NCBI GenBank assembly: GCA_951406725.2
Contig: OX597819.1
Span: 58,590,001 to 58,654,000, forward strand
Source of the DNA: Octopus vulgaris
Taxonomy: Eukaryota
Length of the DNA stretch: 64,000 nt
Reading direction: 5' to 3'
In this document: positions 24,301 to 50,286 of the stretch, piece after piece
Position numbering within the stretch: position 1 is the stretch's first letter
Layout of the letters: every line of letters starts with the position of its first letter
Notes under the pieces: model-generated
What the model was told of the DNA's origin: nothing
Databases searched by the model: none
Seen by the model: only the letters and a program-made list of their open reading frames with translations
Position numbers and translations under genes: made by a program

Positions 24301-27300
24301 CCTCCACCCCCGATCTTACGGGCCTCGTGCTAAAATTTGAAACCATAATTATCATTATCATTGTGGCGGTGAATTGAGAGTATTGTTAGAACGCTGATAT
24401 TTCTCCCGACCCATTCTCTTCTGGTTTCAAATCCTGCCAAGATTAGTTTCCCCTTTTCATTCCACCAAGATTGTTAAAATAAAGTACCACTGAAGCACTG
24501 GTGTGCATTTAATCAACTGTCGCTCCTCCCTTATATTTGAAACTTTGTGCCTTTATCAGAAGCGTTTGTTCTTATTATTATGCAATGCCTGTTTTGTTCT
24601 AGGGAGAACGTGGATCAATGGGAATTCAAGGACCAACTGGACCCCGTGGACCTACTGTGAGTATATTGTTAATTATACTTCTAACTGAAGCTACCTTTAA
24701 AAATGAAATTTAATTTTCTGCTTTAACTTTTTATATGAACAAGTTTGTGTATCTAAATGTTTTTCGTATTTGTGTTTTAAAACAAACGTATCGATGATAG
24801 CATTCTCCTTATAACTTATTTCACTCTATAGGATTATTTTTTGTTAGAAGATCGGTGTTAACGGCATTTCAGAGGCTTCAGCAGTAACAAATGGCTCACA
24901 AAACTCTGATCTAATTATCTAGATAATTAGTATATCATACGATAAAATATTAAGCCATCAAAAGATATTCCAGGTGCAGCCTTTTAAAATCAAGATGTAT
25001 AAAAATTTATTACTATACTACTCTGCTATTATAGACAACTTTTGTGTCAAATATTAAATGATTCGAGATGAACATAAGTTTCACATTTATTGGCTTTGCT
25101 CTTTAGAAACTTGCTGTTTCTAGTCTCCAAAGTAAAAAGTTACGAATTTACACAAGAAGACAATATCATGTTTAAGACAATACTTTATTTTTTCGATGAG
25201 AGTCTTTACTTAAATCGCAATATTTCTAGAAATGAAAGCGGTGAGTGGGTAGACACTTTAGAACCAATAATTTTAGAAATGGCTATAAGTGTCCAATATT
25301 CTATGGATTATAAGAACATCAGACTCACTGTGAGCGTATGTATGTATGTATGTATGTATGTATGTATGTATGTATGCGTATGTATACATATGTATATACA
25401 TATTGTGTGAGTGAGCATGTTTATACCTTCATTGATGAATAAATATAGATGTAACTATAAAATTTGCGTTTTTACCTTATAGGGACCTGCTGGCCCTGCT
25501 GGTGAAGCCGGAGAACGCGGACACTCTGGAGCTAAGGTAATGTTTCTCCCCGTGCATTTATAACTATAACTATAAACACAAGCCTAATACACGCATGCGT
25601 AATAGTCAATTACTCTTTAAAATCTGATTTTAGTCAATTGTATAACTTCGTAATGATTTCAGTGACGTCATATTTTCTTTTGTATTACAAAACTTTAGGG
25701 AGACAAAGGATGGACAGGAGCCCCAGGTATGCCTGGAAACCCTGGACCACAAGGTAGCAGTGGAGAGGCTGGACTTCCAGGACCCGCTGGACCTGCTGGA
25801 CCAAGAGTAAGTTTATATTCATTCCACTTATTTGACGTCATCGTTTACCACCTCCACCACTTGACAACCGGTTTTGGTGTATTTATGTCCCCCATAACCC
25901 CATAACTTAACAGTTTGGCAAAGAGATCCTGATAACATCAATACTACGCTTGAAAAAAATAAGCTCTGGGGTCGATTTGTCCGACTAAAGCCCTTCAAGG
26001 CGATGACCCAGTATGGCTGCAGCAGTCATACAAGTAAAAGAAAAAAAGATGATATATATATATATAATACAACAGAGATGTACTTGCATAGCAAATTATC
26101 TAATCTGAGATCGTGTGCTGAAACAAAAACAATTGCAGTGCAGAAGGTGTTTATAAGCCATCTAAAAACACACTTCAACATTTAAATTGAATTTGTCAAA
26201 ATATTTTCGTCGATTTGAAACAGCGACCTGTTCACTGACAAAATTCCGTACAGCATCTCTCTGCATCTGTATATATATATATATATATATATATATATAT
26301 ATATATATATGTGTGTGTGTGTGTGTGTGTGTGTGTGTGTGTGTGTGTGTGTGTGTGTATATATATATATATATATATATATTTTAAATAATGAGGGAGA
26401 TCTTGATATTTGAAATTATTTATCATCGATGTTTCATTTTCATTAATTGTAGGGCCGAACTGGATCCTCTGGAAACCCAGGTCAAGATGGAGAAGCTGGA
26501 CCACCCGGACTTCCCGGAAGCGCTGTGAGTATTTCCATCTAAATATATATTTTTCTTTTTTTTTCTTTATTTTCTTCTATTTTCAAAATTTTGCACCACA
26601 CATTTCAGTAAAGAAGATAGCTTCCTGTGAGAAAATATTCATTTATAGTGATTAACGTGATAAAGATATTCGAAATTAATAGCATTTGGTATTTCTTTTT
26701 TTAGGGACAACGTGGACCAGCTGGTAAAGATGGCCGACCTGTAAGTTTCTCATTATATTTATTTCTTTATTATAATGCTAACACACATGCAGATTATCAG
26801 CGCTCTCATTTTCTCTGCATGTTTTTCTAGCAATCTCTCTCTCCCTCTTTCTCTCACTAACTACTTCACTCGCTCTTTCTCTCTCTCTCTCTCTCTCTCT
26901 CTCTCTCTCTCTCTCTCTCTCTCTCTCTCTCTCTCTCTCTCAATCTCTCTCCCCCTCTCTGCTTACATACAAACATACTTTCCAAGCTTTCATATTTGTG
27001 GTAAATTCATTCGTCGAACTTAGGAATTCTTCTTAGTAGATGAATTGTTCACAGAAGATATATAGATATAATATATGATATATATACGGATATATGATAT
27101 ATATATATATATGGATATATATGATCTATATATGGATATATATGTATATATATATGTGTATATAGATATGTATATTTATACGTATATATATATATATATA
27201 CACATGTATATGTAAATATATTTAATATATATATATATATATATATATATATATATATGTATATATATGTATATATATATGTATATATATGTATATATAT

Positions 27301-30300
27301 ATGTATATATATATATGTATATATATATATATGTGTATATATATATATGTATATACGTATGTATATATATATATATATATATATGTGTGTGTATATGTAT
27401 GCATATATGTATACATATGTAAATATACATATATATATACATGTATATATATATATATATATATATATATATATATATATATATACATATGTATGCATAT
27501 ATATGTATACATACGCATACATATAGACATACACATATATACACACACACACATATATATATATATGTTTATGTGTATATATGTGTATGCATATATAAAT
27601 GTATCGTTGCAAATTTGATATAATCAATAATAATGTTTCTTTTTTGATATTTTAGGGTAACACTGGACCTCCTGGACCACCTGGACCACCTGTAAGTATT
27701 TTGTCGAATTTCTTTATCATTGTTATAATATAAACTGAAGGCGGTGAGTTGACAAAACCGTTAGCATTTCTTCGGCTTTACATTCTGAGTTCAAATTCCG
27801 CCGAGGTCAACTTTACTGTTTATCCTTTCAGAGTCTATAAAATAAATTACTAGTTGAGCACAAGGGGGTGATGTAATTGACTAGTTCCCCACCAAAAAAA
27901 ATTTCAGTTTTTTTGTACCTAATTAGAAAGAATATTATAAACTTAAATTGCTTATCAACGCCTTTCGGTAAATTTCGTTATTTACAGCAAAAATCGAGGC
28001 AGTCTTAAATACAATAAATGCTAGACCATTACTGGATGGATTTAAATGTCCAATTCCAAATTTATGGCTTTGAGCCGAAACAGAAGTTATTAATGGAAAG
28101 AAATACATTGCAGTAATTTTATTTAAAATCTTTTTAGCTGTTTACTTATATGAGTTGTTCTTTTTCACTGTTCACGAGAAAAATAATTTTTTCTTTCTAT
28201 TTTAAATATTACAGGGCTACGCATCTGCCGGAAGTGCACCTTTCTACCCATCAAGCCCAGTGAAAGGACCCGACCCAGCTGAGAGATATTACGTAAGTTG
28301 AAAGTTTACAAGTACACAACATTTCGTCAATAAAATAAGTAGTAACAAATAACTTTTCGTTAATATAGCCGTATAATTTGATGAAATACAAAGACATTGG
28401 AAAATATCGATAAATATAAACACAATTTATTTCTAAATTGGTGAGCTGGCAGAATCGTTAGCACGCCGGGCGAAATGCTTAGCGGTATTTCGTCTGCCTT
28501 TACGTTCTGAGTTAAAATTTCGTTGAGGTTGACTTTGCCTTTCACCCTTTCGGGGTCGATAAATTAAGTACCAGTTAAGCACTGTGGTCGATGTAATCGA
28601 CTTAATCTCTTTGTCTGTCCTTGTTTAGCCCCTTGTGGGCAATAAAGAAATAACAATTTATATCGTAACTATAACTAGATACTTATTTTAATAGGGTGAT
28701 GAGCCTCAAGGTGATGCAATGACTGTTCTTAATCAAGCTCTTGGCGCTATTAACCGTGTCAAGAAACCAAGCGGTTCCAAGCACAATCCTGGATCTACCT
28801 GCAACGATATCTTGATCAACAGTGAGAAGAAACGTTTGGACAGTGGTCAGTATTCTTTTCTCTGAGTTTTTCTTCCTTTCTGCTCTTTCTCTTCTTTTTC
28901 TTGTTCACCTTGCTCTCTTAGTTTTTCTCCATCCCTATGTTCTTTCCCTCTATCAGTTTTATCAATCGCTTTATTCTTCTCAAAAGGATGAGCCCCAGGA
29001 ATGAATAAGAGATAACTTTCTGAATCACACTTGTGTATCCTTTGGAATGCTTTTTTTTCCACTTATAACGAACCATAGCATCAGTATGTGCTGGTGAACA
29101 AGCCAATTGTCAGAATATGATAGAATATTTGTTCACCCACTTCATCCCCCCACCCCCACTGTCTTTGACATTTCACTGTATCACTACATCGTTGATCACA
29201 ACGCAATTACTCGCATTGTTGTAGCTTTCGAATGATACCACTCTGATTGCTAGGCGTGCAGACCAACACATTAACCCCGTCTGTCACAGTGTTACCCATT
29301 TACTAGTGAGCAGAGTGGAGCAACGTAATGTGAAGTGTTTTGCTCAAGAATATGACCCTCCATCCGGACTGGGAATGGAACCCACGATTTTGAAATCGTA
29401 CGATACCCTAATCACAAGGCCACGGACCTTCATATGTTGCATTTAATGTTGATATTGTTTAGCCTCAAGGTGGCGAGCTGGCAGAAACGTTAGCACACCG
29501 GGTGAAATGCTTAGCAGTATTTCGTCTGTCTTTACGTTCTGAGTTCAAATTCCGCCGAGGTCGACTATGCCTTTCATCCTTTAGGGGTCGATAAAATAAG
29601 TACCAGTTGTGTACTGGGGTCGATCAAGTCGACTGGCCTCCTTCCCAAAAATTTTGGGCCTTGTGCCTAGAGTAAAAAAGAATATTGTTTTGCCTCAGTC
29701 GACGGGAAAACTAATGGAATAAAATTATAAGCATTAGACGAACTGCTCATTTATAAAAGTCATACTTTTTACACTGGAATCTTCTTTCGTTTCAGGCAAA
29801 TACTTCATTGATCCTAATGGCGACTCTATCTCTGATGCTTTCGAAGTTTTCTGTAACATGCATACCGGAGAGACCTGTCTCACACCCGATCATGTTGAAG
29901 TAAGTCTTTTCAGACACATAATTTTTCTTTAACCAATTTATTATATAAAGATGTAAAAACGTGATGATGCTATTTTCAGGGGGATATTGGCAACATAAAA
30001 TCAAACGACTTCAAAAAGAGAATCAAAATTTTTTCGCAAACTCATCTTGTTGATTCACGTTGGTATATATACTCAGATTACTAAAACAATTTTGTTAAGA
30101 TAAAATTGTTTTATCGAACTTATAACTGAAAGTGATTGCGAATTTTACTGGCTAATTTCCATATAAAACTTTCCTACTTTCCAAGCGGTTTGATTTATTT
30201 CACTTATTACAATATTTGGTATTACATACAGAGCGTTGGTTCATATGTTTTCTACCCTACCGATTGGCTCCTCTGCACTCTAATTTCAAATTCCGACAGT

Positions 30301-50070: not shown

Positions 50071-50248
50071 GCCAGCTTTCTTTCTTTCCCTGAGCGTCTG
50101 CTAGTACTTTGCATGTACCACATCCTTACGTTGTTGTTTTATTTTCTTGTATTAGTTCTTCGTTTTCTTGGGATTTACCATATATATATATATAAAGAAA
50201 ATAAGACAATGTAGATAATGCTAAAATTATTTTATCAGGAAGAACATA

Positions 50249-50286
50249 TTAGTACCGGTTCCAGTATTTTAGACTTTTTCAACTAA
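50249..50286 (-). ncRNA. Degenerate minimal hammerhead motif, U3:A8 variant
   Basis: Minus strand: TTAG-TTGAAAA-AGT(ctaaaat)ACT-GGAA-CCGG-TA-CTAA. GAAA is mutated to GGAA. Confidence 0.5.

Follow-up and report, generated by a model that had tools for sequence, protein, structure and literature searches.

Penelope-type minimal hammerhead motifs with exchanged 3:8 core pairs in a 64-kb stretch of the Octopus vulgaris genome

Minimal hammerhead ribozymes are known from Penelope-like elements (PLEs), and here we describe four candidate motifs of this kind in 64,000 nucleotides of Octopus vulgaris DNA (contig OX597819.1, positions 58,590,001 to 58,654,000, forward strand; hereafter the window). 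The PLE minimal hammerhead class, its U3:A8 core and the U10.1·U11.1 mismatch are already known. Cervera and De la Pena (2014; PMC4209133) reported U3:A8 in PLE minimal hammerheads, with ~1,300 matches in S. mansoni, and gave an extra nucleotide after A9 and a palindrome as hallmarks; UUGAUAA and UUGAAAA cores are included in their Fig. S3. According to the same paper, minimal PLE hammerheads cut poorly in vitro and most motifs are solo; dimer cleavage is treated there and in a review (PMC6765202). Natural U3-A8 covariation and a stem II opening with U10.1-U11.1 were described by Perreault et al. (2011; PMC3088659). For the PAc hammerhead of the Anolis element Poseidon, Frangione et al. (2024; PMC11167929) found that a C3G/G8C double mutant was partly active and that protein was needed. 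In their work, hammerhead mutants had no effect on in vitro insertion, RNA-seq reads with an end at the cut site were absent, and uncut RNA was the main insertion substrate. The C3-G8 pair is found in the tertiary-stabilised active structure and is absent from the ground-state minimal structures (PMC3884650); the same source describes a C3-G17 trap and remarks on G3-C8. Non-LTR retrozymes have been proposed as PLE derivatives (10.64898/2026.07.22.740005), and retrozymes are arranged in tandem, carry canonical type I motifs and give circular RNAs (PMC7229834). Poor in vitro cleavage and an insertion assay that proceeded without them make a working role of PLE minimal hammerheads questionable.

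An original prediction, made from the letters of the window, had proposed four dispersed minimal hammerheads with three different 3:8 core pairs. We re-read the sequence and found its coordinates, strands and four 7-nt cores to be correct; positions 3 and 8 are Watson-Crick partners in all four sites (G:C, U:A, C:G, U:A).

26192..26242, minus strand: site 1 motif, minimal type I hammerhead, core GUGAACA (G3 at 26235, C8 at 26230)
40891..40936, minus strand: site 2, minimal hammerhead, core UUGACAA, U3:A8 (strict descriptor match at 40930)
50038..50070, plus strand: site 3, minimal hammerhead, canonical core CUGACGA, C3:G8 (strict descriptor match at 50041)
50249..50286, minus strand: site 4, degenerate hammerhead, core UUGAAAA, U3:A8 (match at 50282 only with one core mismatch allowed)

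The layout occurs above chance in the window, the G3:C8 core is fixed in a high-copy family, and all four Watson-Crick 3:8 pairs occur in PLE terminal repeats (pLTRs). We consider it likely that all four are pLTR hammerheads of the minimal type I, present as solo 3' ends or short non-autonomous derivatives, whose 3:8 positions were kept paired by selection in the parent elements. The original observation is largely real, with three intact PLE-type minimal hammerheads and one decayed one.

The fixed letters of the hammerhead core (U4 G5 A6 A9, G12 A13 A14, A15.1-U16.1 and H17) are complete in sites 1-3 and incomplete in site 4, and only site 3 has the literal C3/G8 consensus. Accordingly, the full layout that had been described as common to all four (core, GAAA, palindromic stem III, UH) holds for sites 1-3, while site 4 has GGAA in place of GAAA at 50262-50259, one change from the consensus. 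Site 4 is probably a decayed copy. The palindromic stem III is present in all four sites, and stems I and II can be formed, though marginally in sites 3 and 4 (stem I/stem II of 7/4, 6/6, 3/3 and 4/3 bp in sites 1 to 4). Site 1 has an extra G after A9, a G10.1:C11.1 pair, GAAA at 26208-26205, the palindrome AAUAUU and U17 at 26199. Site 2 has a U10.1·U11.1 mismatch, the palindrome ACCGGU and C17 at 40897; site 3 has an extra A after A9, the palindrome ACGU and A17 at 50067. The extra nucleotide of sites 1 and 3 and the mismatch of site 2 had been omitted from the original prediction. In site 4, A-U directly follows the core, as in one of the outside PLE loci described below (L082); its palindrome is ACCGGU and its A17 lies at 50253.

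We scanned both strands of the window with a strict descriptor in which N3, N7 and N8 are free, stems I and II have at least 3 bp, and GAAA, a palindromic stem III and UH are required. This descriptor was devised after the sites were known, though it is similar to a published one. It matched exactly three times (G3:C8, U3:A8 and C3:G8), always with positions 3 and 8 paired. Local dinucleotide shuffling (600 replicates) gave 0.18 matches per window on average; three Watson-Crick matches never occurred (0/600), and three matches of any kind occurred once. Two of the observed matches have at least 11 stem pairs, and even one such match appeared in just 1/600 shuffles. These numbers speak against a mere chance resemblance of some or all sites within AT-rich repeat DNA, which we regard as very improbable overall. 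On the side of chance, the core motif with no requirement for stems is found at 21 places in the window, 6 of which have positions 3 and 8 paired, site 3 has only 3+3 bp, and site 4 fails the core. The 3:8 pairing of the three window matches taken alone is weak evidence (P ~0.05-0.06), since 37-40% of shuffle matches are paired (31/78 and 30/81). Pairing was found in 3/18 stemless cases and in 3/3 stemmed cases (Fisher P 0.015). Judged site by site, a chance origin is highly improbable for sites 1 and 2, and unlikely though appreciable for each of sites 3 and 4. Relaxed window scans with one or two core mismatches gave further weak candidates at 29001, 31997 and 24559.

We then compared the sites with PLE loci from outside the window. 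These were retrieved with an alignment of 15 of the 23 homologues of a remnant that lies in the window and places its PLE clade in this genome:

53104..54802, minus strand: broken PLE reverse transcriptase (RT)-endonuclease remnant with frameshifts and stops (homologues with RVT_1 and GIY-YIG, best E 5e-73)

The outside set comprises 86 loci (385 kb). Of these, 80 come from metagenomes, being the top 80 of 429 confirmed loci, and 6 lie in prokaryote assemblies, evidently as host contamination. The strict scan found 28 matches on the RT-sense strand in 26 loci, and all 28 are paired at 3:8, against 30% of the matches in the null for these loci (4.1 matches per replicate over both strands). The comparison with shuffled sequence in the PLE loci bears out the proposed 3:8 covariation. 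The sense pairs are C:G in 23, U:A in 3, A:U in 1 and G:C in 1, so that 5/28 are non-C:G, and part of the C:G rows is redundant. Every sense match falls in the flanks, outside open reading frames (ORFs) of at least 150 aa. The antisense strand gave 7 matches, 4 paired (3 of them C:G) and 3 unpaired, and two of the three antisense C:G matches duplicate a sense motif, either of that element itself or of a nearly identical one. In a second alignment (A2), which is not independent of these scans because it was made by removing three duplicate strict matches, two unpaired relaxed matches and locus L060 and adding three paired relaxed matches, 28/28 are paired (C:G 22, U:A 4, A:U 1 and G:C 1). A model search of three contaminated prokaryote genomes found one new C:G motif beside a PLE fragment and recovered L082 again; a PLE alignment search of viral contigs found no relatives.

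The single G:C match belongs to an intact PLE of 810 aa (L040), whose contig ends overlap by 110 nt and whose motif lies in the terminal repeat (L040:117, plus strand), 117 nt past the stop and 99 nt ahead of the ATG. It has the same GUGAACA core as site 1, a 7-bp stem II, the palindrome AUAUAU and U17. A single G:C match of this strength is expected in the null at 0.07 per replicate, anywhere in the loci, and its occurrence in an intact PLE is a further point against chance as the source of the site 1 core. The A3:U8 match (L036:1969, plus strand; core AUGAGUA) has stems of 5 and 6 bp and lies 83 nt past the PLE ORF. The RT of L036 is the sister of that of L016, which carries U3:A8. In an RT tree of 32 rows, the non-C:G cores stand at separate places (L016 with L036, L082, L063, L076 and L040). 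The window remnant falls in a clade of 8 rows (support 100/99), in which 7/7 of the other members have 4-nt palindrome inserts and 4/7 have U10.1·U11.1. L003, L005, L007 and L081 have in common U10.1·U11.1, a stem II of 4 bp and a palindrome insert of 4 nt, which represents a clade-level hammerhead subtype. The layout of the remnant's clade matches site 2 and is comparable also to sites 1 and 4; its member L082 resembles site 4.

Site 1 belongs to a high-copy repeat, which is delimited as follows.

26075..26255, minus strand: site 1 element, ~180-nt high-copy repeat; the hammerhead forms the 5' end, and the 3' tail stops at a (TA)n tract

We aligned contigs of four public runs (of 24 listed) to 26045-26262 at 80% likeness and obtained 6138, 5564, 2646 and 274 contigs per run. 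Over the motif, the depth in one run (X1) added up to 1.1-2.3 million, compared with ~50 for single contigs, which gives roughly 2-5 x 10^4 copies, as a depth ratio and not as a true copy number. The family is bounded by heterogeneous loose ends past 26075 and ~12 nt past 26243 (to ~26255). At 26229-26243 and 26190-26207, which include the core (26229-26235), A13-U17 and stem I, all minor letters stay below 4% in every one of the four runs. The core letters are therefore near-invariant in the contigs, indicating that G3 and C8 are the state of the family and not a mutation of the window copy. At 26213, the majority letter (97%) gives back a fifth stem II pair. Polymorphisms of subfamily type, with a share of 10-90%, occur at 0/42 structured and 9/126 other positions (P 0.07). 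CpG decay amounts to 2-7% in stem II and 0.6-12% at G12, showing that individual copies decay. The core of this family and the fully paired outside PLE loci together bear out PLE-type minimal hammerheads with 3:8 covariation. The description of the cores as selected applies to the parent elements; individual copies decay, as seen in these CpG changes and in the GGAA of site 4. A 23-nt site 1 pattern had no match in metagenome contigs or in viral contigs. As a separate observation, a joint of 26243 to 26143 with 8 letters between, at a depth of ~1,600 in one run (X5), may mark a minor rearranged or tandem site 1 subfamily.

Two other origins of the site 1 family can be weighed with these data. 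As a variant of the chance explanation, site 1 could be like a miniature inverted-repeat transposable element, with inverted arms mimicking stem I. TA tracts lie on both sides of site 1, as this would have it, but the aligned contigs show no clear terminal inverted repeat at the ends of the family, and we give this reading low weight. Alternatively, site 1 might be a retrozyme-like element that is independent of autonomous elements and copied through small circular RNAs cut from tandem units. The discrete ~180-nt unit with its 5' end coincident with the hammerhead, copies in which both flanks of the cut site are retained, as expected from circles, and the proposed descent of non-LTR retrozymes from PLEs (10.64898/2026.07.22.740005) agree with such an element. 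On the other hand, site 1 is solo in the window, no well-supported tail-to-head joint (26075 to ~26250) appears among the joints listed, and retrozymes carry canonical type I motifs in tandem (PMC7229834) rather than the minimal PLE layout seen here. We therefore find a retrozyme-like origin improbable.

For descent from pLTRs, we propose the following course. Solo 3' ends or short derivatives would have been inserted beside (TA)n microsatellites by PLE proteins. In a tandem transcript of a parent element, two motifs may pair via the palindromic stem III to give an active hammerhead with N3 paired to N8. Cleavage of such parent motifs would follow after N17, and was probably slow and aided by protein. 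The active fold could then be under selection that keeps 3:8 paired while the letters change, including the reversed G3:C8 in the site 1 family. Selection probably acted in the parent elements, and the solo copies are probably inert. None of the four sites has a second copy of its own family in the window, and sites 3 and 4, although close neighbours, are on opposite strands and differ in their palindromes. The original prediction spoke of repeats, which applies to site 1 as a high-copy repeat outside the window, whereas none of the four recurs within it. Its statement that the motifs cleave as dimers likewise finds no support for these solo copies, which lack a same-family partner in the window.

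The insertion context fits this course. Measured in the 3' direction from the cut site, the distance to the start of a (TA)n or (CA)n tract is 133, 102, 113 and 59 nt in sites 1, 2, 3 and 4, respectively; a microsatellite lies within 135 nt at 12-13% of random positions, a threshold that was chosen afterwards. Sites 3 and 4 stand tail to tail on one (TA)n tract (50180-50193), and site 1 has TA tracts on both flanks. Among 28 loci, 4 have the microsatellite-3' context, 3 of these in the clade of the window remnant. PLE clades with a microsatellite bias have been described (PMC8557442).

Several results weigh against a descent of the four sites from pLTRs. None of the four sites has a PLE ORF next to it, and a BLASTN comparison of the elements with the 86 loci gave no convincing match (best E 0.012 over 20 nt). 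Site 4 lacks GAAA, and site 3 alone, with its 3+3 bp, is near chance level. In a relaxed scan of the PLE loci, 2 of the 23 sense matches were unpaired at 3:8. The site 1 family is young, so that its invariant core is partly expected without selection, and its aligned contigs show no depth step at the cut site (26199). With a crude covariance model built from the PLE loci, from which stem I was left out, a search of the window gave 22 matches with site 3 at rank 1 (E 0.13) and site 2 at rank 2 (E 0.22); these best E values are modest, and sites 1 and 4 are absent among the 22. The monomers do not fold into a hammerhead shape (z -1.0 to +0.9). In the dimers, the hammerhead-like form is 6-15 kcal/mol less stable than the minimum-energy dimer, compared with 0.2-12.6 kcal/mol in five PLE-locus controls. 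Folding disfavours the hammerhead shape in most of the PLE controls too, and the energies support neither side. Likewise, Rfam gave no hammerhead among the 150 of 198 window matches listed and none at site 1, as chance look-alikes would predict, but on 6 real PLE loci it gave one weak hammerhead match (E 6.9). Rfam thus misses the hammerheads of real PLE loci and is blind to such motifs.

The missing depth step at 26199 indicates that most site 1 copies arose from uncut or re-joined RNA. This accords with another possibility, in which the sites are true descendants of PLE hammerheads but G3:C8 is catalytically dead or negligible, the family spread via uncut RNA, and the fold is a protein-binding or priming signal or a relic. 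The same possibility is in line with the normal in vitro insertion by PAc mutants and the absence of RNA-seq reads ending at the cut site (PMC11167929), with the merely partial rescue by C3G/G8C in the same study, and with the poor in vitro cutting by minimal PLE hammerheads (PMC4209133). Selection on the catalytic fold, however, is the best explanation for double changes at positions 3 and 8 in several separate PLE lineages, because C3-G8 is seen in the active and not in the ground-state structures (PMC3884650). Since the 3:8 pair is a feature of the active conformation, its natural replacement by U:A, G:C or A:U in these lineages speaks for catalysis as the selected property. We therefore hold a dead or negligible G3:C8 to be rather unlikely. 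Position 17 may provide a further hint: G3 occurs with U17 twice, A3 with C17, and U3 with U or C in 5/6 (the exception is the decayed site 4), although the cases are few. N17 thus tends to avoid the complement of N3, consistent with the C3-G17 trap (PMC3884650). We propose tentatively, as a possibility somewhat short of probable, that all four Watson-Crick pairs are in natural use at 3:8 of PLE minimal hammerheads, with G3:C8 catalytically competent in a family of tens of thousands and in intact PLEs, and with N17 co-adapting.

The window itself consists of microsatellite-rich animal DNA with a fibrillar collagen gene, whose Gly-X-Y exons run from 2274 to 26524 and whose COLFI exons lie at 28695-32858.

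1-32858, plus strand: multi-exon fibrillar collagen gene with Gly-X-Y and COLFI exons

Site 1 lies antisense within a collagen intron, bracketed by the exons 25699-25806 and 26453-26524, and is therefore unable to cut the collagen pre-mRNA; sites 2-4 lie past the collagen coding end. Abundant SINE-like repeats of at least two families lie in the collagen introns, with examples at 28439-28660 and 14945-15357. One intron also contains UUGAAAA ... GAAA CCGG UA at 6604-6645 (minus strand), with the core words of site 4, as a decayed copy or by chance. This fifth candidate, at 6640 (minus strand), ranked third in the covariance-model search and was rejected, as stems I and II are absent. LINE-type RT fragments (Pfam RVT_1) are found at 39107-40568 (minus strand) and 50459-51109 (plus strand), the former split by a TA-rich microsatellite. 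A second broken element (48090-49500, minus strand) has a Cys-rich linker ahead of a GIY-YIG-like stretch, together with an expanded Asn repeat, and looks PLE-like. It had no match to the PLE homologues or to a relevant Pfam family, so site 4 is not linked to it. Relaxed window scans detected no hammerhead at the 3' ends of either PLE-like remnant. Located 3' of the 48090-49500 remnant are several copies of AT-rich units of ~480 nt (43778-45052 and 47144-48070). They are interrupted at 46223-47095, where a retrotransposon-like piece containing a PHD finger stands between (AAT)n tracts.

If all four 3:8 pairs are indeed in natural use, with G3:C8 catalytically competent and N17 co-adapting, this would amount to evolutionary proof of selection for the active fold, and both hammerhead censuses and the PLE clades regarded as 'hammerhead-less' would need redoing. 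Searches based on CUGANGA miss whole high-copy families. The swapped natural cores are ready-made constructs for testing catalysis, with L040 as the best of them.

Compared with the pLTR hammerheads of PMC4209133, the present sites share the type I layout, the short palindromic stem III, the extra nucleotide, the occurrence as solo copies and U3-A8. They are unlike the 56 rows of its Fig. S3, which contain no G3:C8, no A3:U8 and no cephalopod. As the original prediction had anticipated, a CUGANGA search misses the variants: the descriptor given in PMC4209133 is fixed to CUGANGA (^cuganga), and U10.1·U11.1 with the 4-nt palindrome insert lies outside its consensus. Part of what it proposed is already known, U3:A8 in PLE minimal hammerheads having been published in 2014. 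The main text of PMC3088659 names U3-A8 as the sole 3:8 variant and leaves G3-C8 unmentioned. In the text of the literature searched, we found no natural G3:C8 or A3:U8, and G3:C8 appeared only as an engineered variant. The high-copy G3:C8 family and the parallel G3:C8 and A3:U8 cores in outside PLEs are thus provisionally novel. Like the non-LTR retrozymes, the present elements are short, non-coding, hammerhead-bearing repeats with a proposed PLE origin, but unlike them they are solo, carry minimal motifs and form no tandem units in the window. With the PAc hammerhead (PMC11167929) they share the probable character of a PLE pLTR hammerhead. There, G3:C8 is a laboratory mutant, whereas the high-copy family described here and the intact PLE L040 carry it naturally, the family as its majority state.

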